Notes: generated from the letters alone by a model not told the origin. A DNA stretch of 36,245 bases from Oscillospiraceae bacterium (GCA_045545715.1 JAZQBJ010000228.1:1-36245), one strand, 5' to 3'. Positions 10,987-35,523 are shown, counted from the first letter of the stretch. Made by a program: numbers and translations.

Positions 10987-11031
10987 TGAAAAACGCCCTC
11001 CCTGTTCGGATTTTGCACATGTGCGTAACAA

Positions 11032-11082: not shown

Positions 11083-11092
11083 TTAAAATTTT

Positions 11093-11136: not shown

Positions 11137-11141
11137 TGATT

Positions 11142-11876: not shown

Positions 11877-12082
11877 TGTTATCCTCCCAAAATAAAATTT
11901 TGTTGCTTTTTATAACAGCTTTTCTGTTGACTGAAAAGTCAAATGGGTTTATATTTATAAGGTGATGTTTTGTAAAAATGATTACAAAGGTAATTATAGC
12001 TGATTTCTTTTCTTTTGTCACCACTTTTTACATAAACTTAATATTCTTTTCAAAAATATAGTTTGGGCAATCAGGGGGAAAT

Positions 12083-13567: not shown

Positions 13568-13579
13568 GGAGGTTTTTTG

Positions 13580-14335: not shown

Positions 14336-14345
14336 TTTAAGAATT

Positions 14346-14387
14346 AAAACCCGCAAAGGATTTTTCCTTTGCGGGTTTTGTTTTTTG
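14346..14387. terminator. bidirectional rho-independent terminator
   Basis: AAAACCCGCAAAGGA-ttt-TCCTTTGCGGGTTTT followed by a T-run. Confidence 0.85.
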
Positions 14388-14390
14388 CGA

Positions 14391-14639
14391 TTATTCCGGT
14401 TTTAAAATTTCGTCATAAGTTGTTTCGAGGATTTCCTTTATTGCGGAAAGCTGGGAAGCATAGATATGCTGGATCCCTCTTTCGATTTTTACAAGGGTTT
14501 CACGGGTCATATCTATTCCGGAAAGCTGGAGCCGGCGGACAAGTTCCGTCTGGCCGATTTTTTTGCTTTTTCGGATATTTCTGATGTTTTTTCCGATTTT
14601 TATATTCTGGTCCTGTTTTATCTTTTGTTCTTCCATCAA
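14391..14639 (-). CDS. XRE-family helix-turn-helix transcriptional regulator
   Basis: 82 aa. IGKNIRNIRKSKKIGQTELVRRLQLSGIDMTRETLVKIERG is a typical Cro/CI HTH. Confidence 0.85.
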   Translation of the reverse strand: MMEEQKIKQDQNIKIGKNIRNIRKSKKIGQTELVRRLQLSGIDMTRETLVKIERGIQHIYASQLSAIKEILETTYDEILKPE

Positions 14640-14663
14640 AAAGCGCCGCCCCTTAATAAATTT

Positions 14664-14734
14664 TGGACTTAAATCAGTCCATTATGCCTTGATTTTATAA
14701 TAGCGCTATGTTAAAATGGGACTAATATCAGTCC
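14664..14734. promoter_or_regulatory. divergent control region with two GGACT-N6-AGTCC palindromes flanking a + strand promoter
   Basis: The palindromes are TGGACTtaaatcAGTCCA (14664-14681) and GGACTaatatcAGTCC (14719-14734). The promoter is TTGATT (14689-14694), 17 nt, TAAAAT (14712-14717). Confidence 0.6.
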
Positions 14735-14760
14735 ACTTTTTAAGGAAGGAGGAAAACGGG

Positions 14761-15435
14761 TTGAAGATTTTTAAGGGTTTTGTTTTTTCTTTTTCGGTTT
14801 TGTTTTTGATTTTCGGAAGCGGATTTTTCCGCTGTTCCTCCCCTTTTTTTGAAAAAAGCAGTTTTTGCAGGATCGACGGCGGAAAAACTTTTGTTGAACA
14901 GCGGGGATTTTGTCTTTTCTTTTCTGATTATACAAGACCTTTGAGCCGAAAAATCGAGCTTTCTTCCGGTTCTGTCAAAAATCCCGGAAAATGTCTTTTT
15001 TACGGAAACCGTGTTTTTCTCCCGGATCGGGATATTTTCATCGGTTTTTCGGAAAAAGGAGAGGCTTTTCTTTTTGGCGGCGCGGTTTTTGACCGAAACG
15101 GCAACATTGTTTTTGAATTTCCGCCGGCGGAAGATTTTTACGGAAGCGGAAAGGTCCTTCCCGAAAAAATTTTTCTTTTGGGAGAAGAAAAGCTTGTTTT
15201 TGTTTTTGACAACCTTTCTTTTGTTTTTGATACGGAAAGCGGAACATGCGAAGCGCGTGTTCCGCTTTTTGCTTTATTGTTTGCGGCAATTTTCGACATT
15301 CCCTTGATTTTGGCCTTATGTTTTTGTATTATTAAAAAGGTATTTATTTTTATAAAACAATTTTTATTTGGCGAGGTAATTTTTGAAAATGATTTCCGTA
15401 AAACGCGTTGTTTCAAAATTCAGAAGGATTTATGA
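14761..15435 (+). CDS. hypothetical Phe-rich membrane-anchored protein
   Basis: The likely start is TTG 14761, 9 nt after GGAGG. The ATG at 14716 lies inside the operator and promoter. There are N- and C-terminal hydrophobic segments. I recognise no family, and the sequence is T-rich and low-complexity. Confidence 0.45.
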   Translation: MKIFKGFVFSFSVLFLIFGSGFFRCSSPFFEKSSFCRIDGGKTFVEQRGFCLFFSDYTRPLSRKIELSSGSVKNPGKCLFYGNRVFLPDRDIFIGFSEKGEAFLFGGAVFDRNGNIVFEFPPAEDFYGSGKVLPEKIFLLGEEKLVFVFDNLSFVFDTESGTCEARVPLFALLFAAIFDIPLILALCFCIIKKVFIFIKQFLFGEVIFENDFRKTRCFKIQKDL

Positions 15436-16171
15436 AGGAAAATTCCTTTTCCGCTGTTTTGTTCTTGTTGCGACCCTTGCTCTTCTTATAGCCGTTCCGG
15501 AAGAGTTCGAAGTTATGAGCGGCTGGAATTTTTTCAGGGAATTTTCTCTTTTCCATATTCTTTGGGTTATCTGGATGGCGGATATGCTTCTCCAGATTTT
15601 CCCCAGCAGAAAATTCCTTCCCCTCGGTTCTTCAAAATTCAGCCTTAAGGATTTTATTCCGAGAGAGATAAAGAACATCCGCAACCTTGAAAACCTCCTT
15701 GCCTATATCAAAAAATGCAACCGCGACACCATAAAAATCGGAATCGTCTGGTTTTTGCTCACTGCCGCAATCGGCGTTCTCTATTTCAGCGGAATTATCG
15801 GAAGAAACATGCTTCTTGTTCTTTCCGTGGCTTTTTATGTCTGCGATCTGATCTGCGTTCTTTTCTGGTGTCCCTTCCGGGTCTGGTTTATGAAAAACCG
15901 CTGCTGCACAACCTGCCGAATTTTCAACTGGGACCACATGATGATGTTTTCTCCCATTGTTTTTGTTCCGGGATTTTTCACCTGGAGCCTTTGCGCCGGC
16001 GCGCTTATTGTTCTTGCAATCTGGGAAATTTCCTTTGCTCTCCATCCGGAAAGATTTTATGAAGGAACAAACGAAGCCCTTAAATGTTCCAACTGCACCG
16101 ACGTTCTTTGCGGAAAGCGAAACTGCGCCGCGGATATTCCGGATTTGGACAACATCACGAAAGGTATCTGA
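15383..16171 (+). CDS. hypothetical polytopic membrane protein with Cys-rich motifs
   Basis: 262 aa with several TM segments. Contains CPFRVWFMKNRCCTTCRIFNWDH and CSNCTDVLCGKRNC. It overlaps the upstream ORF by about 50 nt. I recognise no family. Confidence 0.55.
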   Translation: MKMISVKRVVSKFRRIYEGKFLFRCFVLVATLALLIAVPEEFEVMSGWNFFREFSLFHILWVIWMADMLLQIFPSRKFLPLGSSKFSLKDFIPREIKNIRNLENLLAYIKKCNRDTIKIGIVWFLLTAAIGVLYFSGIIGRNMLLVLSVAFYVCDLICVLFWCPFRVWFMKNRCCTTCRIFNWDHMMMFSPIVFVPGFFTWSLCAGALIVLAIWEISFALHPERFYEGTNEALKCSNCTDVLCGKRNCAADIPDLDNITKGI

Positions 16172-16173
16172 TT

Positions 16174-16890
16174 ATGGCAATAAAAGCAATCTTATGGGAT
16201 TATGACGGAACGCTTATGGATTCATCAAAAAAATCCATCGAGGTTAGCCTCGAAGTTCTTTCCCATTTCATTCCCGACATTTATGAAAATATTCCGGAGC
16301 CCCTTTCCTCAAGGGAAAATTTCCAGGAAACTTACGGAAGAATTTCCGATTGGGTGGAACTTTATCACTTTTGCTATGGTCTTAACGATGAACAGACCCG
16401 GGAAGCAGTTAAAATGTGGGGCGAAGTTCAGCTCCGAAACAAAACCGAAGCGGAACTTTATTCCGGAATCCCCGAAATTCTTGAACATTTTAAAAAAACA
16501 AAAATGGGCGTCTGTTCCCAAAACGGCGCCGGAATTATAAAAAGATCTCTTGAGCACCATTCCGTGCTCAAGTATTTCGGAGCGGTCATCGGGGTCGATG
16601 ACGTTCTTTTTGATGAACAAAAACCCCACCCCTCCGCTTTTATAAAAGCCCTTGAAAAACTCGGAATCGAGGACAGAAACGAAACTTTTGTCTATATCGG
16701 CGATCACAGCGTGGACGTTGCCTTCGGCAGAAACGCCGAAGCCATGCTCAAAAAAGATTTTCCAAAAGCAAAAGTTGTCTGCATCGCGATGCACCACCCG
16801 GGTGATTACTGCGAAGAGGACGAAAACTTCCTTCCGGACTATATTGCCCACAGTTCTTCCGAGCTTTTTGAGATACTGAACGGAATTTAA
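16174..16890 (+). CDS. HAD-superfamily hydrolase (subfamily IA, phosphatase-like)
   Basis: The start MAIKAILWDYDGTLMDS carries the DxDxT motif. Also ...VCSQNG..., and YIGDHSVDV. The ATG at 16174 is 2 nt after the upstream stop codon. Confidence 0.8.
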   Translation: MAIKAILWDYDGTLMDSSKKSIEVSLEVLSHFIPDIYENIPEPLSSRENFQETYGRISDWVELYHFCYGLNDEQTREAVKMWGEVQLRNKTEAELYSGIPEILEHFKKTKMGVCSQNGAGIIKRSLEHHSVLKYFGAVIGVDDVLFDEQKPHPSAFIKALEKLGIEDRNETFVYIGDHSVDVAFGRNAEAMLKKDFPKAKVVCIAMHHPGDYCEEDENFLPDYIAHSSSELFEILNGI

Positions 16891-16962
16891 ACCTTCTTTG
16901 CCGTGAAGGAAGATTTAAGTTCTTTAATTGGCGATTTTTCGCCGGAAAGGACTTTGATTCTT

Positions 16963-18444
16963 ATGAAAACCGATTACAGTAAATTAAACGAAAAAATTTT
17001 TGAACTTGCCGGAAAATTCGGTGAAAACGGAGCTTTTCTTATAAACCATAAAGGCGAAACCGTTTTGTGCACCGTTTACGGCAAAAATCTTTCCACCGAA
17101 GAACCGATAGAGAAGGAAAGCCGTTACCTTTTGCCTCTTGAATGTTCTTCAATGCTCGCACTTTGTGCGTTTATCCTTATTGATGAAGGAAAGCTCCGTC
17201 TTTCCGATAAAATTTCGAAATTTATTCCGGAATTTGAGCACGCGGATAAAATCACTATCCGCCATCTCCTTTCCGGAAAAAGCGGAATCCGGGATTTTTA
17301 TTTCGGAGAGATCCGCAGGACCCTTGATGAGGATAAGGAATATTCTTCTCTTTCCGATTTTGAGCGCAGAAAAAGGGATATGGAGCTTTATCTCCGGGAT
17401 TATTCTTTCGAAGCGGTGCTCGATTCCATAAAAGGAAAAGAACTTGAGCACGAACCGGGCACTTCCGGCGATTTTTCCTCCAGTAACACCGTTTTCCTCA
17501 AGGAAATCATCGAAAGAGTTTCCGGTCTTTCCGCAAGGGAATTCATAAAACTCAATATTTTCGAAAAACTCGGAATGGAAAACACCGAAATCGGAATTTC
17601 CGAAAAGGCTCTTCCGCTTTATGCTCTTTTCCGCAACGAGGAATATATTGAATTTTGCACCGAAAACACCGATTATCCGTTCTTCACCACAACCCTTTCC
17701 GATCTTGAAAAACTTATGCTGGGAATTTTTGAGCACAGGGTTTTCTCCGAAAAGCTTTTTAGGACCGCAACAAGATTCGATTCGGAAAACATAGGGCTTT
17801 GTTTTGAAAATCTTAACGGATATCCCGTTTTCTTCCTTGATTTTGAATCTTTTTCTCCCGTGATTTTCTATTTTGATAAGGAAAACGATTTTTGCTGGAT
17901 GCTTGTTACCCCCTGCTGTTCAAAATACATTATGGAAGGCGACAACAAATATCTCACTTTTTCCAAGGGAACGAGAATGGAGATCGAACCGATTTTTGTT
18001 TTTCCGAAAAACACAAAAATGCTGCCCTACGGAAAGAAAAACTGGCTCCAGGCGACCGCACTTGAAATTCGTCCCGACCAGAGGGAATTTGTTTCCGGCG
18101 CTCTTGAAACCATAGCTTATGCCTGCGCCCACAAAAATCACAGACTTTTTGTTGAAACCGAAGGCGGAAAAGCCGTCGGTCTTCTTGAACTTTCCATAGA
18201 CCGGAAAAAGGGCGATTATAATATCGAAACCGTTATAATCGACCGCCGCTATCAGGGCAGAGGTTTCGGAAAATTCATGCTCCGCTTTGCCGTTGATTAT
18301 CTTAAAAAAGCCGGCGCAAAAAAACTTTCCATCGGGGTCAACCGCTTCAACATTCCCGCTCAGAAATTATACAGATCCGTAGGATTCAAAGAGGACTGCG
18401 TTTATGAGGAAGGAATTTTTATGACCCAGGAGCTTTCCGATTAA
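16963..18444 (+). CDS. fusion of a beta-lactamase-like serine-hydrolase-fold domain and a C-terminal GNAT N-acetyltransferase
   Basis: N-terminal part: FILIDEGKLRLSDKISKFIPEF...ITIRHLLSGKSGIRDF (PF00144-like). C-terminal part: VIIDRRYQGRGFGKFMLRFAVDYLKKAG...QKLYRSVGF (GNAT motif A). The start is probably ATG 16963, since GTG 16903 has no SD. Confidence 0.7.
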   Translation: MKTDYSKLNEKIFELAGKFGENGAFLINHKGETVLCTVYGKNLSTEEPIEKESRYLLPLECSSMLALCAFILIDEGKLRLSDKISKFIPEFEHADKITIRHLLSGKSGIRDFYFGEIRRTLDEDKEYSSLSDFERRKRDMELYLRDYSFEAVLDSIKGKELEHEPGTSGDFSSSNTVFLKEIIERVSGLSAREFIKLNIFEKLGMENTEIGISEKALPLYALFRNEEYIEFCTENTDYPFFTTTLSDLEKLMLGIFEHRVFSEKLFRTATRFDSENIGLCFENLNGYPVFFLDFESFSPVIFYFDKENDFCWMLVTPCCSKYIMEGDNKYLTFSKGTRMEIEPIFVFPKNTKMLPYGKKNWLQATALEIRPDQREFVSGALETIAYACAHKNHRLFVETEGGKAVGLLELSIDRKKGDYNIETVIIDRRYQGRGFGKFMLRFAVDYLKKAGAKKLSIGVNRFNIPAQKLYRSVGFKEDCVYEEGIFMTQELSD

Positions 18445-18457
18445 AAATATTTAAAAA

Positions 18458-18499
18458 CAAAAAAGCGGTGCTTCAAGATTTTGAAGCACCGCTCATTTT
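18458..18499. terminator. bidirectional rho-independent terminator
   Basis: GCGGTGCTTCAA-gatt-TTGAAGCACCGC, with an A-run and a T-run on the flanks. Confidence 0.85.
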
Positions 18500-19858
18500 T
18501 TATCTGTAATCGAAAGTATGGAGCCAATCGCCTTTGAGGTAATATATAAGGAAAATAATGCAGCTTAAAAGCCAGGTTATGGGATATGCCCAATAGACGG
18601 TTTCTATCACCGGATAGAATCGCACCGCAACGGTTATATAGGTAACACGGATTATGCACCAGCAAAGGAGCATTGTGTACATGGGCATTTTTGCTTTTCC
18701 GGCGCCGCGCATTACAGCAGAAACCGCATGGGCAAAGGCCAGTGCAAAGAAGAAGATGGATTCTGTTCTCATCTGGTTGACACCGATTTCAACAACCGCA
18801 GGATCGCTGTTGAAAAGCGGGATTACCCATGGGCAGATTATCCAAAGAATACCGCCGAGTATCTCCGCGGAAGCCATTGCTGAAAGGATTCCGAAGCGGG
18901 AACCTTTGAGGGCGCGTTCGTGATTTCCGGCGCCGAGGTTCTGGCCGATGAAGGTGGTTATGGCCATGGAGAAGGACATTATCGGAATGAAGATGAAGCC
19001 TTCGATTTTTGAATAGGAACCGCAGCCGGCCATGGCATCATCGCCGAATGCATTTATGTTGGACTGGACAACAACGTTTGCTATGGAGATAATTGAGTTG
19101 TTTATTCCGGAAGGAATTCCCTGATGAAGTATCTCTTTAAGTCTGTCAAAATCAAAGCGGATCTTATTGAGATGAAGCTGATAATAGCCTTCGCTCATAA
19201 GCAGTTTTCTGAAACCGAGAACAGCCGAAAGCATCTGGCTTATAACCGTTGCAACAGCCGCACCCGCAACGCCCAAATTGAAAACGCCGACAAAAACAAG
19301 GTCAAGAACAATGTTTGTAAGCGAAGCGATTATCAGAAAACGAAGAGGGCTTTTTGAATCGCCCACCGCCTGCAGAATTCCCGCGCAGACGTTATAGGTA
19401 AGGGTGAAAAAGCTTCCGAAGAAATAGATCCGGAAATAGGTTGTTGAAAGGGGAAGAACGTTTTCCGGGGTTTTCATAAGTATCAGAAGCTTTGGCGCAA
19501 GCCAAAGGCCGAGGATTGAAAGAGTGAGTCCGCAGCAGAGAGCGAAGGCCACGGCGGTGTGGATCGCCTTCTGCATTTTTTCGAAATCCCTTGCACCCAG
19601 ATAGCGGCTTATGATAACGCCGGCACCCATGCAAAGACCCATGAAAAAGCCGGTCATCATAAAAATAAGGTTTCCGCTGCTGGAAACCGCCGCAAGAGCT
19701 TCTTTTCCGACAAAGTTGCCGACGATTATGCTGTCGGCGGTGTTATAAAGCTGTTGGAAAAGATGCCCGATAAAAACAGGTATTGCAAAACTTATCATAC
19801 ACTTCCAGATTGGACCGGAAGTCATATCTATACGTTTTGACGCTTGTTCAGAAGCCAA
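18500..19858 (-). CDS. MATE family efflux transporter
   Basis: 452 aa. GPIWKCMISFAIPVFIGHLFQQLYNTADSIIVGNFVGKEALAAV, with 12 predicted TM-like segments. Confidence 0.9.
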   Translation of the reverse strand: MASEQASKRIDMTSGPIWKCMISFAIPVFIGHLFQQLYNTADSIIVGNFVGKEALAAVSSSGNLIFMMTGFFMGLCMGAGVIISRYLGARDFEKMQKAIHTAVAFALCCGLTLSILGLWLAPKLLILMKTPENVLPLSTTYFRIYFFGSFFTLTYNVCAGILQAVGDSKSPLRFLIIASLTNIVLDLVFVGVFNLGVAGAAVATVISQMLSAVLGFRKLLMSEGYYQLHLNKIRFDFDRLKEILHQGIPSGINNSIISIANVVVQSNINAFGDDAMAGCGSYSKIEGFIFIPIMSFSMAITTFIGQNLGAGNHERALKGSRFGILSAMASAEILGGILWIICPWVIPLFNSDPAVVEIGVNQMRTESIFFFALAFAHAVSAVMRGAGKAKMPMYTMLLCWCIIRVTYITVAVRFYPVIETVYWAYPITWLLSCIIFLIYYLKGDWLHTFDYR

Positions 19859-20048
19859 AAAAACGCCTCCTATTTTTTATTATTTTAAAACCGAAATATA
19901 TTATATTCTTTAAAAATGTTGCTGTCAATTGTAGCATTTTTCTACAATTTTATTAAAACTTGGTTTTTCCATCTTTTCTTCGGAATAAAAAAACTTTTCG
20001 GGGCCAAAATATTGCCAAAAGGATTTTTTTAAAAAAGGTGGTTATAAA

Positions 20049-20765
20049 ATGAAAAACAACAAAAGAAGCGGTCTTGGCGGTTTTCTTGCCGGACGCGGAT
20101 TTTATGCCGCAATGGCTGTTTGTCTTATCGGCGCGGTAACCGCTGCCTGGGTAACAGCAGACCGCACCATAAGTTCGCTTAACGAAAAAAACAACGTCCC
20201 TGTTCCGGAAAACCGGGTGGTTTCCGAAGAAAAATATGATCCGGATGATTCGATTTTTGCTTCTGAAGACGTTGGCGCACCCAAAGAGGATATCAAAATC
20301 GAAAAGGAACCTGAAAATTCCGAACCGGAAGAAAACACTTTTAACTTTTTTGGCAAAGGCAACGTTTTTCTGATGCCGGTCGAGGGCAAAACCGCAGCCG
20401 GACACAGCGGCGGCGAACTTGTGAAATATGAGGCTCTCGGCGAATGGCGCACCCATGACGGAATTGACATTCTTTGTGAAACCGGAAGCGAAATAAAGGC
20501 TTCTTCCGACGGAAAAGTTGTTTCTGTAACAAACGACCCCCTTTGGGGAACGGTTGTTGAAATTTTGCACGACGGAAACGTTGCGACAATTTACAGCGGT
20601 CTTGAACCGGAAGTTTTTGTAAAGGCGGAGGACAAGGTAAAAGCCGGCGACGTTATCGGAAAGCTTGGCGAAACGAACCTCGCGGAGGTTGACGGCGAAG
20701 CGCATCTTCATTTTGCGATGAAAGAAAACGGCAAATTCATCGACCCCATGACCAAATTGAAATGA
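20049..20765 (+). CDS. M23 family metallopeptidase with N-terminal membrane anchor
   Basis: HxxxD motif in THDGIDI and HxH motif in EAHLHFAM. N-terminal TM segment FYAAMAVCLIGAVTAAW. Confidence 0.85.
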   Translation: MKNNKRSGLGGFLAGRGFYAAMAVCLIGAVTAAWVTADRTISSLNEKNNVPVPENRVVSEEKYDPDDSIFASEDVGAPKEDIKIEKEPENSEPEENTFNFFGKGNVFLMPVEGKTAAGHSGGELVKYEALGEWRTHDGIDILCETGSEIKASSDGKVVSVTNDPLWGTVVEILHDGNVATIYSGLEPEVFVKAEDKVKAGDVIGKLGETNLAEVDGEAHLHFAMKENGKFIDPMTKLK

Positions 20766-20795
20766 TTTCAGTTTTTTAAGGCGTAAAATCCCAAA

Positions 20796-20828
20796 TAAAA
20801 AAGCACCGCTTTCGCGGTGCTTTTTTAT
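20796..20828. terminator. bidirectional rho-independent terminator
   Basis: GCACCGC-tttc-GCGGTGC flanked by AAAAAA and TTTTTT. Confidence 0.85.
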
Positions 20829-20845
20829 TGTATCGGGTTTTGTTT

Positions 20846-22267
20846 TTATTTTCCGAGGACGGATTCATAAAGGCGGGTATAGGCGTGAGCGCTTCTGCTC
20901 CAGCTGAAATCGCAGGAAAGGGCGTTGAGAACCGCTTCTTTCCAGCGTTCGCCTTTATAATAAAGGGTTTCTGCGCGGCGGATGGCATCGAGCATATCGT
21001 CAGCGTTATAGGTCTGGAAAGTGAATCCGTTGCCTTTAATTCCGCCGAGATCCTTGATGGAATCCTTAAGGCCGCCGGTTTCGCGGACTATCGGGATAGT
21101 TCCGTAGCGAAGAGCTATCATCTGGGCAAGACCGCAGGGTTCGCTCTTGCTGGGCATAAGAAATGCATCGGAGCCGGCATAAATTCTTCTTGCAAGGGCG
21201 GGGATAAATCCGCAGACAAAGCTTATTCTGCCCGGATATTTATCCTGCATATAGCGGAAGAAACTTTCGAAAGCGGATTCTCCGGAACCGAGGATAGCAA
21301 TCTGGACGTTGTCTTCCATCATTCTGTCACAAACAGCACGCACAAGATCAAGACCCTTGTGGGAAACAAGTCTTCCGACCATGCCTATAAGCATTTTTCC
21401 GGAATCGACTTCAAGGCCCATTTCCTTCTGGAGTTCTTCCTTGCATTTTGCTTTTCCGGAAAGATCGAATTTGGAGAAGGTTGCGGGAATCTCTTTATCG
21501 GTTACAGGATCGTAGCCTTCGGTATCGATTCCGTTGAGGATTCCGGCAAGTTTATATTTTCTTTCGCGCAAAAGGCGATCCATTCCCCATGCAAACCAGG
21601 GATCCTGGATTTCTTCCGCATAGGTGGGGCTTACGGTGGAAATTGCGTCGCACTGGTCGATTCCGGCTTTCATGTAGTTGCAGCGGCCGTCATATTCCAC
21701 AAAACCGCGGCTGTTTTCGGGGATTCCAAGAACGTCCGCAGCAAAATACATATCATAGTTTCCCTGATACTGGATGTTATGGATGGTATAGACGGTTTTG
21801 ATTTTTCCGTATTTCGGTTCTCCGCGATAGAAAAGGCGAAGGAAAGTCGGGATAAGTCCGGTCTGCCAATCGTGACAATGGATGATATCCGGTTCAAAAT
21901 CCATGAATTTAATGGCTTCGAGCACAGCCATGGAAAAATAGCCGAAACGCTCGCCGTCATCAAACTGTCCGTAAATTGCTTCACGCTTGAAATAATATTC
22001 GTTATCAATAAAATAGAAAGTTACGCCGTTATAAACGGTTTTTAAAAGGCCGCAATAAAGATTTCTCCAGCCGAGCCAGACTTTGAATTCCGCGATTTTT
22101 TCCATTTCTTCACGGTATTTATCCGGAATCTGGGAATAGAACGGAAGAATTACTCTGCAGTCACAGCCTGCGCCAAGAAGTGCTTTCGGAAGAGCGCCGA
22201 TCACGTCCGCAAGTCCGCCGGATGCTATGAAGGGACGGGCTTCGCTTGCCGCAAAAAGTACGTTCAT
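20846..22267 (-). CDS. glgA: glycogen synthase (ADP-glucose type)
   Basis: MNVLFAASEARPFIASGGLADVIGALPKAL... 473 aa. Confidence 0.95.
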   Translation of the reverse strand: MNVLFAASEARPFIASGGLADVIGALPKALLGAGCDCRVILPFYSQIPDKYREEMEKIAEFKVWLGWRNLYCGLLKTVYNGVTFYFIDNEYYFKREAIYGQFDDGERFGYFSMAVLEAIKFMDFEPDIIHCHDWQTGLIPTFLRLFYRGEPKYGKIKTVYTIHNIQYQGNYDMYFAADVLGIPENSRGFVEYDGRCNYMKAGIDQCDAISTVSPTYAEEIQDPWFAWGMDRLLRERKYKLAGILNGIDTEGYDPVTDKEIPATFSKFDLSGKAKCKEELQKEMGLEVDSGKMLIGMVGRLVSHKGLDLVRAVCDRMMEDNVQIAILGSGESAFESFFRYMQDKYPGRISFVCGFIPALARRIYAGSDAFLMPSKSEPCGLAQMIALRYGTIPIVRETGGLKDSIKDLGGIKGNGFTFQTYNADDMLDAIRRAETLYYKGERWKEAVLNALSCDFSWSRSAHAYTRLYESVLGK

Positions 22268-26516: not shown

Positions 26517-26772
26517 AGGTTTCTCCTTTCAAATCGGCCTTCCACAAAAAGGAAGGTGCCCGCAAGGCAGGCGGAAGGGTTTTTGACTGTAATTATATAT
26601 ATAATATTGTAACATCTTTAGCATACCTTTTTCAATGCCGAATGTGTAGAAATAATTACAACATTTTATATTAAAATGACGAAAGCTCCTAATTTTTTTA
26701 CAAAACTGTCTTTAAATAAAACACATCCTGTGATATACTGTTTTTATATTCCACCACAGGAGGTTTTTTACT

Positions 26773-28802: not shown

Positions 28803-28950
28803 TGTTCATCCTCCGGGTGATTCAAGTTTGTTTAACCATCTATATGTTATCACAACCCGGCCGGATATACAAGAACAGACAAAACAACGGTCAGTAAGGT
28901 ATGTTTAAATATTGTGTGGCGGATATATCCGCCTATTTTTTTGCCTTTTT

Positions 28951-29046
28951 GGATGAGGGATTTTTATTGCGGCGGGAGTTGATGTTGGTTTCCACCCTTC
29001 TGTCTTTCGCCTTCGGCGAAATCCACCTCCCCTGATAGGGTAGGCT
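28951..29046 (+). repeat. ORF-less relic of a type-1 DUF559 cassette (inner left box plus right-arm-like end)
   Basis: GGATGAGGGAT (28951-28961) is identical to 7168-7178. About 45 nt later comes CGCCTTCGGCG and then CCACCTCCCCTGATAGGGTAGGCT, which parallels the right arm CCACCTTCCCCTCCGGGAAGGCT. Confidence 0.55.
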
Positions 29047-29052
29047 TTTTTC

Positions 29053-29129
29053 GGGCGAACACATAGGTTCGCCCCTACGGAGACGGAATTAATATCGGTG
29101 TGTTATGGTAGGGGCGGATATTATCCGCC
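29053..29129. repeat. REP/REPIN-like inverted pair of GTAG-headed hairpins
   Basis: GGGCGAACACATAGGTTCGCCCCTAC (29053-29078, reverse orientation) and GTAGGGGCGGATATTATCCGCC (29108-29129). A related hairpin, GGCGGATATATCCGCC, is at 28918-28933. Confidence 0.65.
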
Positions 29130-29151
29130 TGTTATTCGTGGAACAGGGTCG

Positions 29152-29215
29152 ACAATTCCTCAGTCAGCTTCGCTGCCAGCTCCCTTTACACAAGGGAGCC
29201 TGCCCTCCGGGAAAG
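29152..29215 (+). repeat. solo relic resembling the right arm of the type-2 DUF559 cassette
   Basis: AATTCCTCAGTCAGCTTCGCTGCCAGCTCCCTTTACACAAGGGAGCC compares with GAATCCCTCCGTCAGCCTTCGGCTGACACCTCCCTTTAGGCAAGGGAGGC at 33231-33280. Confidence 0.55.
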
Positions 29216-29322: not shown

Positions 29323-31128
29323 ATGCCGAATGAGAACATAAGAAACTTTTGTATAATCGCACATATCGACCACGGCAAATCCACCCTTGCCGACAGAATC
29401 CTTGAAAACACCGAAGCCGTCACTCCCCGCGAAATGGAAGAACAGCTTCTGGATAATATGGACATTGAACGTGAACGCGGAATCACCATAAAATCCCGCG
29501 CTGTCCGTCTTGATTATAAAGCCGACGACGGAAACAACTATGTCTTCAACCTTATCGATACCCCCGGACACGTTGACTTCAACTATGAAGTTTCCCGTTC
29601 TCTTGCCGCCTGCGAGGGAGCTGTTCTTATTGTTGACGCTTCCCAGGGAGTTGAGGCACAGACTCTTGCAAACACATATCTTGCGGTTGACCACAACCTT
29701 GAAATCGTTCCGGTAATCAACAAAATCGACCTTCCCGCGGCAGACCCGGACAGAGTTGCCCATGAGATCGAGGATATCATCGGAATTCCCGCTCTTGATG
29801 CGCCGCAGATTTCCGCAAAGACCGGCGTTAACATACATTCCGTTCTTGAAGCGATCGTCGAGGGAATTCCCGCTCCGGAAGGAAACGACGAAGCTCCGCT
29901 CAAGGCGCTTATCTTCGACTCCATTTATGACAGCTACCGCGGAGTAATCGTTTACGTCCGCGTTGTTGACGGCGAACTCCATTCCGGCGACAGAATCAGA
30001 ATGATGGCGACCGGCGCGGAATTTGACGTTGTTGAAGTCGGTTATATGGGCGCAACAAGGCTTGTTCCCAGCGGAGTTCTCAAGGCCGGCGAAGTCGGCT
30101 ACATCACCGCTTCCATCAAAACCGTTGCGGATACCGCAGTCGGCGACACCGTTACCCTTGCGGAAAATCCCACCGACGAACCTCTTGCAGGTTACAAAAA
30201 GGTCAATCCGATGGTTTATGCGGGTATTTATCCCCTCGACGGCGCAAAATACGGCGACCTTCGCGAAGCTCTTGAAAAACTTATCCTCAACGACGCTTCT
30301 CTCAGCTTTGAGCCGGAAACTTCCGCCGCTCTCGGTTTCGGTTTCCGCTGCGGATTCCTCGGACTTCTTCATATGGAAGTTATCCTCGAGCGTCTTGAAA
30401 GAGAATATAACCTCGACCTCATAACCACCGCGCCCAGCGTTGTTTATAAACTTCACCTCACCGACGGACGCACCCTTGAACTTGACAACCCGACCAACTA
30501 TCCCGACCCGGCTATTATTGATTCCACCGAAGAACCCTACGTCCGGGCTTCCATCTTTACTCCCACCCAATATATCGGAAGCATTATGGAGCTTTGTCAG
30601 GAACGCCGCGGAATTTATAAAGATACCAAATATCTTGAGGCAGACCGCTGTGAAGTTCACTATGAACTCCCCCTCGGCGAAATTATCTATGACTTTTTCG
30701 ATGCTCTCAAGAGCCGAACCAGAGGTTACGCCTCCTTCGACTATGAACCCTGCGGATATAAAGCCAGCAAGCTTGTTAAACTCGACATTCTTCTCAACGG
30801 AGAAATGGTCGACGCCCTTTCCATGATGGTTTTCGCAGATAACGCCTATCCCAGAGCGAGAAGAATGGTCGAAAGACTCCGCGACAACATCAGCCGCCAG
30901 CTTTTCGAAGTTCCGGTCCAGGCGGCCATCGGCGGAAAGATCATCGCCCGCGAAACCATAAAAGCCCTCCGCAAGGACGTTCTTGCAAAATGTTACGGCG
31001 GCGATATTTCCCGAAAGAAAAAACTTCTTGAAAAACAGAAGGAAGGTAAAAAGAAAATGCGCCGCATTGGTTCCGTCGAGCTTCCGAAGGAAGCATTCAT
31101 GGCGGTGCTCAAGCTGGACGATGACTAA
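29323..31128 (+). CDS. lepA: translation elongation factor 4
   Basis: 601 aa. [36 protein letters not shown], and the LepA C-terminal domain. Confidence 0.97.
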
Positions 31129-31600
31129 GCCTTCCCAGAGGGGAAGGTGGCACAGCCGGCGGCTGTGACGAAAGAGGGATAACAATGCCAAGGATTTATA
31201 AAGCAAATGAAGATCTGCGCAATAATTCCCATGAACTCCGAAAGAATATGACGCCGCAGGAAAAGCATTTGTGGTATGATTTTCTGAATTCATACGAAAT
31301 TTCCTTCAGACGTCAAGTTGTTATTAGAAATTACATCGTTGATTTCTATTGCAGAAAGGCAAAACTTGCCGTTGAAATTGACGGTACCCAACATTACACT
31401 TCCGAATCAATACAATACGATAAAGAACGTACGGAATATCTTGAAAGTTGCGGAATAATGGTTCTTCGTTTTTTAAACAAAGACATTGACCGTAATTTTG
31501 AAAATTCCTGCGCTTATATTGACCTAAATGTGAAACAAAGGCTTGGGTAAAATCCCTCTTCCGCCTCGTTTCACTCGGCACCTTCCCCTCTGGGAAGGCT
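31128..31600 (+). mobile_element. TIR-bounded DUF559 cassette, type 1, copy 2
   Basis: The left arm (31128-31180) is AGCCTTCCCAGAGGGGAAGGTGGCACAGCCGGCGGCTGTGACGAAAGAGGGAT. The right arm (31552-31600) is ATCCCTCTTCCGCC...GGCACCTTCCCCTCTGGGAAGGCT. The first base of the left arm is the last A of the lepA TAA. Confidence 0.6.
31185..31550 (+). CDS. DUF559 domain protein (Vsr-like / PD-(D/E)xK fold)
   Basis: 121 aa. LRKNMTPQEKHLWYDFLNSYEISFRRQVVIRNYIVDFYCRKAKLAVEIDGTQHY...VLRFLNKDI. It is collinear with 7183-7548. Confidence 0.85.
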   Translation: MPRIYKANEDLRNNSHELRKNMTPQEKHLWYDFLNSYEISFRRQVVIRNYIVDFYCRKAKLAVEIDGTQHYTSESIQYDKERTEYLESCGIMVLRFLNKDIDRNFENSCAYIDLNVKQRLG

Positions 31601-31710
31601 TATTATAAAATAAATTTTCTTTTTATTAATTAAAAAGAAGGTTTTTTGCAAAATTCGGTGTATATAGTATATGTAAGACAAAATTTTTTCAAAAAAGGAG
31701 GCGGCAGAAG

Positions 31711-32709
31711 ATGAATATCCGCGAAATTACAGAAAAACTTGAGCGCGAAACCCTTTCGCCAATGGCGACCCTTTCCGCAGAAACAAAAGGCAGACTTTTT
31801 CCTCTTGAATCCGACGGGATAAGAACCGATTTTCAGCGGGACAGGGACAGAATCATCCACTGCAAGGCTTTTCGCCGCCTTATGCATAAAACCCAGGTTT
31901 TCCTCAGCCCGGAAGGCGACCATTACCGCACCCGTCTCACCCATACTCTTGAAGTTGCACAGATTGCAAGAACAATGGCGGTTGCCCTCCGCCTTAACGA
32001 AAACCTGACCGAGGCGATAGCCCTCGGGCACGACCTTGGGCACACCCCTTTCGGTCACGCAGGCGAAAGAGCTCTTAACGAAGTTGCTCCCGGCGGTTTC
32101 CGCCATTATGAACAGAGCCTTCGCGTTGTTGATATCCTTGAAAGGGACGGAAACGGTCTTAACCTTACTTATGAAGTAAGGGACGGAATCGTTTGTCACA
32201 CCAAAGGAAAAGAAGCGGACACCCCGGAAGGAAAACTTGTTAAGCTGGCGGACCATTTTGCCTATGCTCACCACGATTATGAGGACGCAGTCCGCGCAGG
32301 AGTTCTTACCGAAGAAGCCGTCCCGGCAGAAGTTAGGGAAATCCTCGGAAACGGCGCAACACCGCGCCTTGCAAAAATGATAACCTCCGTTATCGAAAAT
32401 TCCGACGGCGACATAAAAATGGCTCCGGAAGTTGCCGCAGCAAGCAAGCTTCTTGAAGAATTCATGTTCTCCGCGGTTTACACAAACCCGGTTGCAAAAT
32501 CCCAGGAGCACAAGGCGGAAGCTCTTGTTAAAGCGCTTTATGAATTCTTCCTTGAAAACGCAAACGCCCTTCCCTCTGAATATCAGGCGATCGCAATGCG
32601 CGACGGGCTCGACAGAGCGGTTTGCGATTACATCAGCGGAATGAGCGACCGCTACGCCATTAAACTCTATAACGATTTCTTTGTTCCCAAAGGCTGGAGC
32701 AGGGAATAA
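31711..32709 (+). CDS. dgt: dGTP triphosphohydrolase-like HD-domain protein
   Basis: 332 aa. FQRDRDRIIHCKAFRRLMHKTQVF, RLTHTLEVAQIARTMA, GHDLGHTPFGHAGE. It lies upstream of dnaG, as in many Firmicutes. Confidence 0.9.
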   Translation: MNIREITEKLERETLSPMATLSAETKGRLFPLESDGIRTDFQRDRDRIIHCKAFRRLMHKTQVFLSPEGDHYRTRLTHTLEVAQIARTMAVALRLNENLTEAIALGHDLGHTPFGHAGERALNEVAPGGFRHYEQSLRVVDILERDGNGLNLTYEVRDGIVCHTKGKEADTPEGKLVKLADHFAYAHHDYEDAVRAGVLTEEAVPAEVREILGNGATPRLAKMITSVIENSDGDIKMAPEVAAASKLLEEFMFSAVYTNPVAKSQEHKAEALVKALYEFFLENANALPSEYQAIAMRDGLDRAVCDYISGMSDRYAIKLYNDFFVPKGWSRE

Positions 32710-32716
32710 AAGGAAG

Positions 32717-32845
32717 CCTCCCTTGCCTAAAGAGCAAAGCTTGCGAAGCGCGCCCAGTGGGCGAAACAGCGAGCAAGGTTTGGCGCCGCGGTCAAAATAT
32801 TCAAGATGTTATGCCGCAGAATATTTTGGGCACCGCAAGAGTTGG
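32717..32845 (+). repeat. second copy of the ~125-130 nt structured repeat (see 4206-4331)
   Basis: The alignment to 4206-4331 is described there. Stem: 32793-32802 with 32819-32828. Hairpin: CGCCC-agt-GGGCG at 32751-32763. Confidence 0.8.
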
Positions 32846-32885
32846 GTGGCATTTCCGTAAGGAAATGACGGAGGGATTCTTTTTT

Positions 32886-33269
32886 ATGGAAAGGAAACAT
32901 AATCCAAAGCTTACGGAAAATGCAAAAGAACTTCGGAAAAATATGACCAAAGAAGAAAAACATCTTTGGTACGATTTTTTGAAAGGATATCCCGTCCGTT
33001 TTCTTCGCCAGAAAATAATCGATGATTACATTGCCGATTTTTATTGCCACAGAGCAAGGCTTGTAATTGAACTTGACGGAAGTCAGCATTATACAAAGGA
33101 CGGACTTTTGAAAGACAAAATCCGGACAGAAAGAATTGAAAAACGTAATTTGACCGTTTTTAGAATTCCGAACGGTGAAATAAATCATAATTTCGAGGGA
33201 ATCTGCAGATTCATTGATGAATTTGTGCAGGAATCCCTCCGTCAGCCTTCGGCTGACACCTCCCTTTAG
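32886..33269 (+). CDS. DUF559 domain protein, type 2
   Basis: 127 aa from ATG 32886 (SD GGAGGG, 9-nt spacing). LRKNMTKEEKHLWYDFLKGYPVRFLRQKIIDDYIADFYCHRARLVIELDGSQHY...VFRIPNGEI. The track ORF start at 32757 runs through the arm and repeat. Confidence 0.85.
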   Translation: MERKHNPKLTENAKELRKNMTKEEKHLWYDFLKGYPVRFLRQKIIDDYIADFYCHRARLVIELDGSQHYTKDGLLKDKIRTERIEKRNLTVFRIPNGEINHNFEGICRFIDEFVQESLRQPSADTSL

Positions 33270-33306
33270 GCAAGGGAGGCTTATATCCCGGAAAGGAGGA
33301 GGACCC

Positions 33307-35061
33307 ATGATTCCCCAGAGTTTTATTGAAGAATTAAAAATGAACTGCGATATCGAATCAGTTGTTTCGAGCTACGTTCAGCTTCGGAAGCGCGGAAGGA
33401 TTTCAACCGGGCTCTGCCCTTTCCATTCGGAAAAAACCGGTTCCTTCACCGTTTATCCGGAAAGCCAGTCTTTTTATTGTTTCGGCTGCGGAGCCGGCGG
33501 CGACGTCATCGGTTTTATCCGCCGGATCGAAAATCTTGAATATGTCGAAGCCATAAAATTCCTTGCACAGCGGGCGGGAATGAACGTTCCGGAAGATGCG
33601 GCAGAAGACAAGACCGCACTTTTAAAAACAAAAATCCTTGAAATGAACCGGGAAGCCGCAAGATTTTATTTTTCCGAACTCACAAAACCAAGCGGCAAGG
33701 CCGCCCTTGATTATCTTCTCGGGCGCGGACTTGAACCAAAGACCATAAAACATTTCGGGCTCGGCTATGCGCCGAACGACTGGACAAGGCTCACCGATCT
33801 TCTTGCATCAAAAGGCTATCGCTATGAGGATATGGTCGCGGCCCAGCTTTCCCGCAAAAGCGAGAAAAGCGGAAGATATTACGACGTTTTCCGTGACAGG
33901 GTTATGTTCCCGATAATCGATTTAAGAGGAAACGTAATCGGCTTCGGCGGAAGAAAAATGAGCGGCGACGGCCCGAAATATTATAACTCCCCGGATACTC
34001 CGGTTTTCAAGAAAACAAAAAACCTTTTCGCCCTCAATTTTGCGAAAAAGCAAAAGCTCGAGCGGCTTATCCTTTGCGAAGGATATATGGACGTAATCGC
34101 CATGCACCAGGCGGGTTTTACCGAAGCGGTCGCCTCCCTCGGAACTTCGCTAACTTCCGACCAATGCAGGCTTGCCTCCTCCTACGTTGAGGAAGCGGTT
34201 CTTGCTTATGATTCGGACGAAGCGGGACAGAAAGCAACGAAGAGAGCCATCGGACTTCTTGACGAAGTCGGAATCCGCTCAAAGGTTCTTACCATTCAGG
34301 GCGCAAAGGACCCGGACGAATTTATCAAAAAATTCGGCGGAGCAAGATTCAAAAAGCTTATTGAGCAAAGCGCAGGCTCGGTTGAATATGAACTTTCGAA
34401 AATCGGCGCGAAATATGACACCGAAACTCCGGAAGGAAAAATTTCCGCACTAAAAGATGCGGTCGGGCTTCTGGCGGATATGAAAAATCCGCTTGAGCGG
34501 GAAGTCTGGGCGGCAAAGCTTGCCCGGGATTACGGCACAACAAAAGAAGGTATTCTCACCCAGGTTCAGACAAAGATAAAACGCCGGGCAAGGGCCCAGG
34601 GGAACAGAACTGTTCTTGGACAGAACGCCCAAAGCGCAACTTTCGGCGGCGCCGTTCCGGAAAAACTTAAGAATCCGGCTTCCGCGGCGGCTGAAGAAAG
34701 GCTTTTGGGCGCAATAATGCGCCACCCGGAAACTTTGAGCACGCTGAGCACGAAAGTTTCCCCGGAAGATTTCGTCTGTGAGCTTTACGGAAATTTTTAC
34801 CGGAAGCTTCTCGAAACTCTGAGCACCGGAGCCGAAATATCCCTTACCCTTTTCGGGGAGGATTTTACTCTTGAGCAGCAGGGCATAATCGCAAAACTTA
34901 CCACCCTTGCCCGTGAGCACCAATATTCCGCCGAAGACGCCGCAGAAGCGGCAAAGACCATTCTTCGCCTTAAGGAAAAGAAAACCGACAAGGAAATCGG
35001 CGAACTTTCCGGAGAGGAACTTGCGGCTTATATTGATAAAATGAGGAAGGCAAAGAAATAA
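33307..35061 (+). CDS. dnaG: DNA primase
   Basis: MIPQSFIEELK..., the zinc finger CPFHSEKTGSFTVYPESQSFYCFGCGAGGD, and the TOPRIM EGYMDVI...DSDEAGQKA. ATG 33307 follows GGAGGAGG. The upstream extension to 33214 lies in the cassette right arm. Confidence 0.95.
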   Translation: MIPQSFIEELKMNCDIESVVSSYVQLRKRGRISTGLCPFHSEKTGSFTVYPESQSFYCFGCGAGGDVIGFIRRIENLEYVEAIKFLAQRAGMNVPEDAAEDKTALLKTKILEMNREAARFYFSELTKPSGKAALDYLLGRGLEPKTIKHFGLGYAPNDWTRLTDLLASKGYRYEDMVAAQLSRKSEKSGRYYDVFRDRVMFPIIDLRGNVIGFGGRKMSGDGPKYYNSPDTPVFKKTKNLFALNFAKKQKLERLILCEGYMDVIAMHQAGFTEAVASLGTSLTSDQCRLASSYVEEAVLAYDSDEAGQKATKRAIGLLDEVGIRSKVLTIQGAKDPDEFIKKFGGARFKKLIEQSAGSVEYELSKIGAKYDTETPEGKISALKDAVGLLADMKNPLEREVWAAKLARDYGTTKEGILTQVQTKIKRRARAQGNRTVLGQNAQSATFGGAVPEKLKNPASAAAEERLLGAIMRHPETLSTLSTKVSPEDFVCELYGNFYRKLLETLSTGAEISLTLFGEDFTLEQQGIIAKLTTLAREHQYSAEDAAEAAKTILRLKEKKTDKEIGELSGEELAAYIDKMRKAKK

Positions 35062-35065
35062 AAAT

Positions 35066-35523
35066 AGCCTCCCTTGCCTAAAGGGAGGTGGCATTTCCGT
35101 AAGGAAATGACGGAGGGATTCTTTTTTATGGAAAGGAAACATAATCCAAAGCTTACGGAAAATGCAAAGGAACTTCGGAAAAATATGACCAAAGAAGAAA
35201 AACACCTTTGGTACGATTTTTTGAAGGATTATCCCGAACGTTTTTTGCGGCAAAAGGTAATTGACGATTATATTGCTGATTTTTATTGCCACAAAGCAAG
35301 GCTTGTAATCGAACTTGACGGAAGTCAGCATTATACAAAGGACGGACTTTTGAAAGACAAAATCCGGACAGAAAGAATTGAGAAACGTGATTTGACCGTT
35401 TTGAGAATTCCACACGGTGAGATAAATCATAATTTTGAGGGAATCTGCAGATTCATCGATGAATTTGTGCAGGAATCCCTCCGTCAGCCTTCGGCTGACA
35501 CCTCCCTTTAGGCAAGGGAGGCT
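35066..35523 (+). mobile_element. TIR-bounded DUF559 cassette, type 2, copy 2 (compact form)
   Basis: The left arm (35066-35121) is AGCCTCCCTTGCCTAAAGGGAGGTGGCATTTCCGTAAGGAAATGACGGAGGGATTC. The reverse complement of the right arm (35473-35523) is AGCCTCCCTTGCCTAAAGGGAGGTGTCAGCCGAAGGCTGACGGAGGGATTC. Confidence 0.6.
35128..35511 (+). CDS. DUF559 domain protein, type 2
   Basis: 127 aa. By manual alignment it differs from the 32886-33269 product at 7 residues. Confidence 0.85.
   Translation: MERKHNPKLTENAKELRKNMTKEEKHLWYDFLKDYPERFLRQKVIDDYIADFYCHKARLVIELDGSQHYTKDGLLKDKIRTERIEKRDLTVLRIPHGEINHNFEGICRFIDEFVQESLRQPSADTSL

Follow-up and report, generated by a model that had tools for sequence, protein, structure and literature searches.

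Why should dnaG, an essential gene, be bracketed by two closely similar predicted nuclease genes inside the operon that it shares with dgt and sigA? The question is raised by a 36,245-nt stretch of DNA from Oscillospiraceae bacterium (GCA_045545715.1 JAZQBJ010000228.1:1-36245; hereafter the window, meaning the whole stretch analysed), the DnaG protein of which gave no record in an exact look-up. Its dgt–dnaG and dnaG–sigA spacers each hold a compact cassette (C and D, respectively), in which a single DUF559 gene is enclosed by structured terminal inverted repeats (TIRs); two further cassettes, A and B, lie elsewhere in the window. We find that C and D are not fresh copies of one another, that the spacers around dnaG turn over among close relatives and that the two copies appear, from comparison of strains, to evolve in concert by gene conversion. 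They belong to what is apparently an undescribed, large and multi-copy family of compact selfish cassettes. No DUF559 gene is described as a TIR-flanked cassette in the full-text literature searched, the coverage of which leaves out most subscription journals.

Cassette anatomy

Each arm contains, from the outside inwards, a palindrome composed of a pyrimidine run, a loop and a purine run (H1), a hairpin (H2) and a segment that we call P3; primes denote the right-hand counterparts. The 5′ copy of P3 is the Shine–Dalgarno (SD) sequence of the open reading frame (ORF) and the 3′ copy is an anti-SD at or just past the ORF end. The TIRs are ~55 bp long (~50–56 nt in most homologues). In the window, the cassettes and their parts are as follows.

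7126–7594, plus strand: cassette A, type 1, between cysE and cysS; ORF 7183–7548
31128–31600, plus strand: cassette B, type 1, directly 3′ of the lepA stop codon; ORF 31185–31550; H1 CCTTCCC-agag-GGGAAGG
32715–33281, plus strand: cassette C, type 2, in the dgt–dnaG spacer; ends AGCC...GGCT
32850–32867, plus strand: left H2 hairpin of C, CATTTCC-GTAA-GGAAATG
32870–32879, plus strand: 5′ strand of P3 of C, GGAGGGATTC, the SD of the ORF; pairs with 33231–33240
32886–33269, plus strand: ORF of C, a 127-amino-acid DUF559 (Vsr/EDxHD-like) predicted nuclease; PF04480, E = 7.6e-26
33231–33281, plus strand: right arm of C, with the 3′ strand of P3, GAATCCCTCC (33231–33240), H2′ GTCAGCC-TTC-GGCTGAC (33241–33257) and H1′ (33259–33279)
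35066–35523, plus strand: cassette D, type 2, in the dnaG–sigA spacer
35068–35121, plus strand: left arm of D, with H1 (35068–35088), H2 (35092–35109) and the 5′ strand of P3, including the SD (35112–35121)
35128–35511, plus strand: ORF of D, a 127-amino-acid DUF559 predicted nuclease; PF04480, E = 3e-25
35473–35523, plus strand: right arm of D, with the 3′ strand of P3 (35473–35482), H2′ (35483–35499) and H1′ (35501–35521)

Cassette C begins 5 nt after the dgt stop codon (TAA, 32707–32709) and D begins 4 nt after that of dnaG (TAA, 35059–35061). All cassette ORFs lie on the plus strand, co-directional with the operon, the genes of which were identified by domain content: dgt by HD and HD_assoc, dnaG by the full primase architecture and sigA by sigma-70 regions 1.1, 1.2 and 2. 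These positions and orientations agree with an initial annotation of the locus, which had also described a local hotspot; three cassettes do fall within 4.4 kb (31128–35523), and the fourth is that at 7126–7594. An inverted-repeat scan gives D arms of 28 nt that are 96% complementary and B arms of 24 nt that are 100% complementary.

As the same annotation had noted, type 2 has the architecture of type 1 with a different H1, and its right arm encodes the C-terminal tail of the protein. H1 reads CCTCCCTT-gccta-AAGGGAGG at the left end of D (35068–35088), and its inverted form (CCTCCCTT-taggc-AAGGGAGG) stands at the right ends of both C (33259–33279) and D (35501–35521). The type-2 ORF traverses P3′ and H2′ and ends at a TAG within the H1′ loop, and the tail ESLRQPSADTSL* is the translation of P3′–H2′–H1′; because of this continuation the tail is conserved, and it is kept even in proteins ~76% identical to the query. 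At cassette A, the arm reaches into a host gene: the cysE ORF (6490–7173) runs into the left arm and stops within P3 (TGA, 7171–7173), and the last ~18 residues of the serine acetyltransferase are encoded by the arm.

The arms are not a product of chance, as indicated by the RNA fold of D and by recurrence in other cassettes. The RNA fold of cassette D is a panhandle in which H1 and H1′ make a stem of 25 bp and P3 one of 14 bp, with H2 and H2′ as local hairpins (whole cassette, −172.8 kcal/mol, z = −11). A protein-guided scan of metagenome contigs gave 80 loci with homologues that are 48–92% identical, most of which have these arms with other stem sequences, and the order H1–H2–P3/P3′–H2′–H1′ is common to 45 non-redundant cassettes with many different stem sequences. 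There are at least 10 H1 variants and many H2 variants, the stems of which vary between families yet always pair, and the P3 variants always pair the SD with the 3′ end. Across 16 diverse left arms, 97.9% of cells pair, 5 of 9 pairs have changed on both sides and no H1 pair has changed on one side only; none of 500 shuffles scores as high for covariation, and the signal collapses in slid controls. A left H1 of CCTCCC..GGGAGG is combined in many families with a right H1′ of GCTCCC..GGGAGC. Each hairpin is thus compensated internally although the two arms differ, which argues that the hairpin or palindrome itself is under selection. The arms also change far more slowly than the ORF: between window D and its orthologue in the relative L001, 1 of 62 left-arm positions has changed, compared with 31 of 329 in the ORF.

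On which molecule does this selection act? It seems to us rather improbable that the arms have a mainly RNA-level role, in which the panhandle and the SD-sequestering P3 would form a device for RNase III-type processing, stability or translational coupling, and the copies would be domesticated operon parts spread by ordinary recombination. The stability of the D fold is in keeping with such a role, as are the constant position of the SD within P3, the resemblance of the H1 3′ halves to an extended SD (AAGGGAGGTG), the start of window-clade cassettes 0–9 nt after stop codons and the orientation of upstream neighbours (48 co-directional and 13 opposite, a trend only, as the ORF scan was crude and noisy from shadow ORFs). 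DUF559 might then be an RNA-acting Vsr-like nuclease, as proposed for FASTK RAP domains, and the title of one study gives a precedent for an RNA-acting fold of this kind (PMC11879112). However, G·U pairs are not in excess on the sense strand, and wobble pairs are scarce overall (5 G·T and 3 A·C among 979 pairs). Many families combine perfect local hairpins with a mismatched long-range H1:H1′ duplex, and H2′ is a UUC triloop in the transcript and GAA on the opposite strand, a mirror symmetry that fits DNA rather than one RNA. The gene is also multi-copy, with four copies in 36 kb, and its pseudogenes, ORF-less copies and presence or absence among close relatives argue against a needed host function. 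The loops follow the same symmetry, with GNA or GNNA on the top strand of left-end H2 in 11 of 14 distinct hairpins, and TNC on the top strand (GNA on the bottom strand, often as GCGAAGC) of right-end H2′ in 5 of 8. The constraint therefore looks two-fold symmetric and exerted on DNA rather than purely on RNA structure, although H2 and H2′ are partly homologous inverted repeats and the symmetry could partly reflect descent.

The cassettes have no evident promoter of their own and no efficient terminator, and they sit in spacers behind conserved genes; they are therefore probably co-transcribed by read-through of the host operon. Translation of the nuclease would stay low owing to P3 and to the panhandle formed by the two ends, and SD sequestration, the panhandle and the post-stop position are probably how a potentially toxic, promoterless gene is tolerated in essential operons. 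An earlier suggestion that the hairpin and T-rich right ends attenuate read-through into dnaG and sigA is weak for C and D, which end in CTTATATC and CTTAAAAA, respectively. A plus-strand terminator scan of the right arms flagged B and neither C nor D; some other families end in T-runs.

The left arm of C differs from that of D by a nested structured repeat, of which the window holds a second copy.

~32733–32843, plus strand: nested repeat of ~110 nt; interrupts the left H1 of C after CCTAAAG, with 2–3 nt of the H1 3′ half gone
4219–4327, plus strand: other copy of the repeat, 86% identical to the insert in C

The repeat accounts for the 109 nt by which C is longer than D and for the broken left H1 of C. 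Both window copies lie 6–7 nt 3′ of a CCTCCCTTG motif, and two stems stay paired through compensatory changes between the copies. A further copy, 98% identical and with the same junctions, is present in L087 (10010–10118), in the D-site cassette of a more distant lineage; cassette C of the closest relatives (L177–L180) does not contain it. The repeat looks like a small mobile element that targets H1. In Rfam scans at the gathering threshold, the sole match in the window was a lysine riboswitch (RF00168, 1443–1618, minus strand, 102.8 bits). At E ≤ 5, the region of cassette C (32650–33350) gave one chance small nucleolar RNA match only, leaving the arms and the nested repeat without a curated family. 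These scans revealed no intron RNA family in the region, and the cassettes are intergenic and chromosomal.

Secondary events have breakpoints near the H1 loop, as in the 109-nt insert (3–4 nt 3′ of the loop) and a ~70-nt arm fragment inside an H1′ loop. We considered whether cassettes had inserted into the loop of a hairpin already present at the target and rejected this: in most families one loop is the reverse complement of the other, and the entire H1 and H1′ therefore belong to the element. Two further arrangements involve the arms. A 15-nt unit, CACAAGGGAGGCT(T/G)G, is repeated in tandem from the H1′ loop beside the right arm in five loci (L123, L125, L126, L127 and L129); its copy number ranges from 1 to more than 10 among assemblies with the same insertion site, and each unit holds the SD-like AAGGGAGG. 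On a 1.1-kb contig (L146), a cassette is nested within the arms of another element, producing a composite inverted repeat of ~160 nt.

Divergence and turnover around dnaG

A recount confirmed that the C and D proteins differ at 7 of 127 residues and that the right arms are identical. The description of the cassettes as near-identical holds for their shared type and right arms and not for their age. The ORFs differ at 27 of 384 nt (93.0% identity), with all differences within ORF nucleotides 42–330; the final 54 nt of the reading frame match throughout, as do the right arms (0 of 66 mismatches). The 17 synonymous and 7 non-synonymous codon differences correspond to a dS of 0.29 and a dN/dS of 0.10; between the window and L001, the dS of dnaG is 0.50. 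Window D is 89.8% identical to the D-site copy of L001, compared with 90.1% for the dnaG flank; D thus diverges as its flanks do and is therefore an old, vertically inherited resident. Cassette C is about equally distant (~6–7%) from the D-site copies of three genomes. These values, together with relatives that are occupied at both sites and one (L007) that keeps a type-2 remnant at the C site, make a simple recent local duplication of one cassette across dnaG, as had been proposed, very improbable, even though the copies lie 2.2 kb apart and share type, orientation and right arm. The idea that C is a plain copy of the insert-bearing D-site allele of L087 was weakened by its ORF identity to that allele (93.8%, compared with 93.0% to window D) and by the lack of the insert in C of the closest relatives.

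Could one copy, or its placement, result from mis-assembly of a repeat? The window itself appears to come from an assembly of the metagenome type, and the best database relatives are metagenome-assembled genomes and short contigs that break at the repeat. However, each copy joins dgt, dnaG or sigA at junctions of its own, the two are separated by 27 substitutions and a 109-nt indel, and among the closest relatives DUF559 cassettes fill both sites in four independent assemblies. We regard an artefact as excluded in practice.

Among 80 Oscillospiraceae/Clostridia species loci retrieved, most have dgt–dnaG–sigA synteny, with dgt next to dnaG on its 5′ side and sigA on its 3′ side, only close relatives have lepA directly 5′ of these genes and only the close clade has cassettes. 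Within that clade, the states of the lepA–dgt, dgt–dnaG and dnaG–sigA spacers are as follows (percentages refer to DnaG).

L177–L180 (99%): lepA–dgt, type-1 pseudogene with a stop codon; dgt–dnaG, type 2 with the left arm intact; dnaG–sigA, type-1/type-2 chimera
L001 (97%): lepA–dgt, RAYT-like Y1 gene; dgt–dnaG, Y1 gene and then a type-3 H1′ remnant; dnaG–sigA, type 2
L181 (95%): lepA–dgt, ORF-less element; dgt–dnaG, type 2; dnaG–sigA, copy with H68Y and a frameshift
L007 (94%): lepA–dgt, solo degenerate type-1 hairpin; dgt–dnaG, type-2 right-arm remnant; dnaG–sigA, solo hairpin and T-run
L008 (91%): lepA–dgt, type 1; dgt–dnaG, type 3; dnaG–sigA, solo hairpin and repetitive extragenic palindrome (REP)
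L009 (90%): lepA–dgt, Y1 gene; dgt–dnaG, no hairpin; dnaG–sigA, solo hairpin
L087–L092: lepA–dgt, ORF-less with nested arm fragments; dgt–dnaG, type 3 (Y1 in L091); dnaG–sigA, type 2 with the nested insert of window C

All three spacers therefore turn over, as the survey of presence and absence proposed earlier had envisaged. Their contents range from nothing, solo hairpins, arm remnants and ORF-less elements to DUF559 cassettes of four arm types and Y1 genes like those of REP-associated tyrosine transposases (RAYTs). Divergence in proportion to the flanks, the pattern of a locus without turnover, is seen for D and not for the locus as a whole. The proposal that the cassettes persist because they bracket an essential gene is not supported by these relatives, in which each copy has been lost, replaced or has decayed independently: L007 is geneless at both sites, C is replaced by a Y1 gene in L001, and the D-site copy of L181 carries H68Y and a frameshift.

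The two copies also co-vary within strains, in line with the gene conversion that the initial annotation had listed among its options. Identity between the C and D bodies is 92.2% in the window, 97.3% in L177/L179 and 99.4% in L178/L180, and the pairs of L178/L180 differ by 4–5% from those of L177/L179. The D-site copy of L177–L180 is chimeric, its type-1 left arm and N-terminus being joined to a type-2 body at the conserved LRKNMT motif; the 5′ part of cassette B is donor-like sequence for this chimera. From these comparisons, C and D around dnaG are seen to evolve in concert by gene conversion.

Turnover extends to other sites. In L175 and L176 (CysS protein 99% identical), the cysE–cysS spacer contains a type-1 left-arm remnant, within which cysE also ends, followed by an internally deleted, ORF-less type-2 element; the L175/L176 contig is ~82–90% identical to the window at the nucleotide level and represents a related lineage rather than the same strain. 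Type 2 also occurs between ftsK and ftsY and upstream of glgB, so that one type occupies unrelated sites. ORF-less, internally deleted derivatives are present in L087 and L181 (lepA–dgt), L175 (cysE–cysS), L174 and the window itself (28950–29045), the last within a cluster of remnants.

28950–29210, plus strand: arm-remnant cluster 5′ of lepA, composed of an ORF-less P3–P3′–H2′–H1′ element (28950–29045), a REP-like GTAG/CTAC pair (~29047–29131) and a solo right arm

A solo left arm (26538–26580) lies upstream of a minus-strand gene. Comparison of the whole window with L182 and L183 for empty and filled sites was set aside, as these are too divergent (~82–90% nucleotide identity); in L183, which is otherwise collinear, ~11 kb of the window (9750–20846, from the thioesterase gene after cysS to the glycogen synthase gene) has no counterpart.

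The RAYT-like Y1 genes are found at 6040–6540 and 7631–8137 in L001, 2344–2847 in L009 and 138–644 in L091 (NF047646, 4e-17, below cutoff). They occupy the lepA–dgt and dgt–dnaG spacers, and their start codons overlap the upstream stop (TGATATG, ATGA). Within the coding sequence, a GTAG...CTAC REP-like hairpin pair flanks the HUH motif; L001 and L009 have hairpins of different sequence at the same position.

The nuclease and the spread of the cassettes

The C and D proteins match PF04480 at 90.6 and 88.6 bits (gathering cutoff 20.6); DUF559 spans residues 8–113, and no second Pfam domain was found in the 127-amino-acid protein. Searched against the Protein Data Bank, the family profile matches the DUF559 protein 3HRL (E = 2.6e-20) and the catalytic domain of I-Bth0305I (3R3P, E = 0.0028), the latter over the DFY and IE.DG motifs; the D protein alone matches 3HRL at E = 3.8e-7. 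Residues D51, E62, D64, H68 and D77 do not vary among 16 diverse members and match the EDxHD/Vsr catalytic set as given in PMC3239194. Intact copies are under strong purifying selection (dN/dS 0.07–0.16). Judged by its sequence, the cassette protein looks like an active nuclease.

The selected nuclease, structured ends, ORF-less forms, pseudogenes, presence and absence, replacement, chimeras and concerted evolution together suggest the life cycle of a selfish nuclease element. We favour an account, which we hold to be about evenly poised between right and wrong, in which break-induced gene conversion both spreads the cassettes and homogenizes them. The targets of the nuclease would be H1-type palindromes of other copies, of ORF-less arms or of solo hairpins, each cut at its centre or close to it, and an intact cassette would then be copied to repair the break, the arms providing the homology; we infer the cleavage, its target and the copying step from the features above. 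The outcome would be homing-like gene conversion rather than classical transposition. This could account for presence or absence at fixed sites, replacement of one type by another, chimeras, the concerted evolution of C and D and the build-up of hairpin remnants. As a crossover joining C to D would remove dnaG, it never survives, and only conversion products are visible. Three features favour homing-like conversion over transposition: the sole gene is a Vsr/EDxHD-type nuclease, the breakpoints of secondary events cluster at the H1 loop, and no clear target-site duplication is evident at A–D (TAAAAA(T/G) stands on both sides of D, and A, B, C and L002 have at most TA in an AT-rich context).

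Several points weigh against this account. Homing is classically site-specific, and the occurrence of one cassette type at several unrelated sites would need ectopic copying directed by arms or hairpins. TIRs and derivatives resembling miniature inverted-repeat transposable elements (MITEs) are hallmarks of transposons, not of homing endonuclease genes. The protein is a catalytic domain alone, without the N-terminal NUMOD/helix–turn–helix (HTH) region of I-Bth0305I, and conversion between 460-bp repeats 1.8 kb apart requires no dedicated nuclease. Part of the data on concerted evolution comes from short-read metagenome assemblies, in which repeat paths may be mis-threaded, although L177 and L179 are independent assemblies with identical sequences. 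A clean before-and-after pair of empty and filled sites was not found among the relatives compared, and every hairpin-bearing 'empty' site can also be read as a deletion remnant, which the dgt–dnaG site of L007 clearly is.

The transposon-like features raise the alternative, unlikely in our judgement, that each cassette is a TIR element with a passenger gene, of the mobile insertion cassette or MITE kind, that is non-autonomous and is moved in trans by an insertion sequence (IS) transposase or a RAYT-like Y1 enzyme. DUF559 would then be cargo, for example, a repair, restriction-like or defence nuclease, and PADLOC gives weak matches to a methyl-directed restriction endonuclease and to DpdF. 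The ~55-bp TIRs, ORF-less derivatives and nested insertions fit such mobilization, as do the lack of any known transposase fold within the cassettes, the recognition of hairpins by HUH enzymes and, in L001, L009 and L091, the presence of Y1/RAYT-like genes at precisely the lepA–dgt and dgt–dnaG sites. Yet the nuclease gene and its co-varying arms are kept together down to ~50% protein identity and into Deinococcus, and P3 is interlocked with the SD and 3′ end of the gene itself, which is not expected of an arbitrary passenger. The absence of clear target-site duplications at A–D would also count against mobilization in trans. Moreover, the 36-kb window holds no Y1 homologue, the Y1 genes have REPs (GGGGCGGATAnTATCCGCCCC) that bear no relation to H1 or H2, and the gene-bearing form is itself multi-copy, unlike in RAYT systems (PMC3116915).

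Family breadth and known systems

How far does the association of DUF559 genes with TIRs extend beyond these operons? A search with one cassette protein gave 15,644 representatives of 50%-identity clusters at E ≤ 1e-3 and 2,570 at E ≤ 1e-10. On plasmid pDEIPR03 of Deinococcus proteolyticus (L186, 278–750), a DUF559 gene is enclosed by a TIR of 56 nt with 95% complementarity, which includes a CCTCCCCC-GCAA-GGGGGGAGG hairpin, and on a plasmid of Picosynechococcus PCC 7003 (L187, 199–853) another is flanked by inverted hairpin repeats with CCCCnnATTnGGGG arrays. The 3HRL-type gene of Neisseria gonorrhoeae is flanked by direct repeats of ~110 nt and has no TIRs, and a ycjD-like locus of Escherichia coli has no flanking TIR, only a 17-bp palindrome upstream; TIR association is therefore not universal for DUF559 genes. 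In the plasmid collection, all matches were below 60% identity and 25 of 29 matching records were non-mobilizable, and the phage collection gave only two unverified faecal 'Bacteriophage sp.' scaffolds (51% and 44% identity). The cassettes are thus not obviously carried by known vehicles. One unverified faecal 'Bacteriophage sp.' scaffold (L174, 1306–1460) contains an ORF-less H1–H2–P3...P3′–H2′–H1′ element directly upstream of an armless DUF559 gene.

A broader and more doubtful proposal is that small DUF559 proteins are the nucleases of an unrecognized, cross-phylum class of autonomous mini mobile elements, which would recognize their own terminal hairpins, possibly as DNA hairpins or cruciforms, and be copied through induced breaks into hairpin-bearing intergenic sites. 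Such elements would have ORF-less, MITE-like parasites, and their mobility would be neither classical transposition nor site-specific homing.

Among known systems, the EDxHD homing endonucleases I-Bth0305I and phage Hef (PMC3239194) have a homologous catalytic domain with conserved catalytic residues. They too are selfish nuclease genes between or within conserved genes, present in some alleles and absent from others, prone to decay and under purifying selection where intact. Unlike them, the cassettes lack the NUMOD/HTH region and any intron or intein, are chromosomal and multi-copy, place one type at several unrelated sites and have structured TIRs and ORF-less derivatives. Bacterial MITEs, IS elements and mobile insertion cassettes (Correia/NEMIS, RUP and ERIC; PMC2229807, PMC3184786) resemble the cassettes in TIRs that fold into a long RNA stem, intergenic location, fusion of an arm to the 3′ end of a host ORF (as in cysE), internally deleted ORF-less forms and nested insertions. 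However, the sole gene of the cassettes encodes a PD-(D/E)XK/Vsr-like nuclease rather than a DDE, HUH, serine or tyrosine transposase, no clear target-site duplication is seen and the TIRs hold two conserved hairpins and a segment interlocked with the SD and stop region of the gene.

REP/REPIN–RAYT systems (PMC3116915) likewise have a small gene flanked by inverted palindromic units, with long co-evolution of gene and palindrome and clusters formed by insertion into or beside existing units, and RAYT-like genes occupy the same spacers in relatives. By contrast, the cassette enzyme is not a Y1 HUH protein, neither H1 nor H2 is related to the GTAG-type REPs that accompany the local Y1 genes, and four gene-bearing cassettes in 36 kb stand against few remnants, ORF-less forms not being hugely more common. 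The Vsr repair endonuclease and the DUF559 proteins YcjD and 3HRL share the fold and superfamily group (PMC3424549, PMC1189080). The cassettes differ from Vsr in having no adjacent cytosine methyltransferase gene (their neighbours are lepA, dgt, dnaG, sigA, cysE and cysS), and from all three in being multi-copy, polymorphic and TIR-flanked, whereas the E. coli and Neisseria loci inspected are without TIRs. The cassettes share features with homing nucleases, with MITE/IS elements and with REPIN–RAYT systems and fail a defining feature of each. Fungal mitochondrial double-hairpin elements are small hairpin repeats that accompany mobile endonuclease ORFs inserted at gene 3′ ends, where they sometimes replace the host C-terminus; they differ from the cassettes in their organellar host and nuclease families, and there is no evidence of homology.

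For DUF559, a very large family of unknown function, the hairpin-TIR cassettes provide a concrete functional hypothesis, namely cleavage at their own palindromes, and they may add a nuclease-only, TIR-bearing type to the mobile elements of bacteria. Repeats of ~460 bp inside core operons (lepA–dgt–dnaG–sigA, cysE–cysS and ftsK–ftsY) break short-read assemblies. For their hosts, the cassettes can rewrite protein C-termini, as in cysE, and they give rise to tracts of conversion in loci that are essential to abundant gut Oscillospiraceae.

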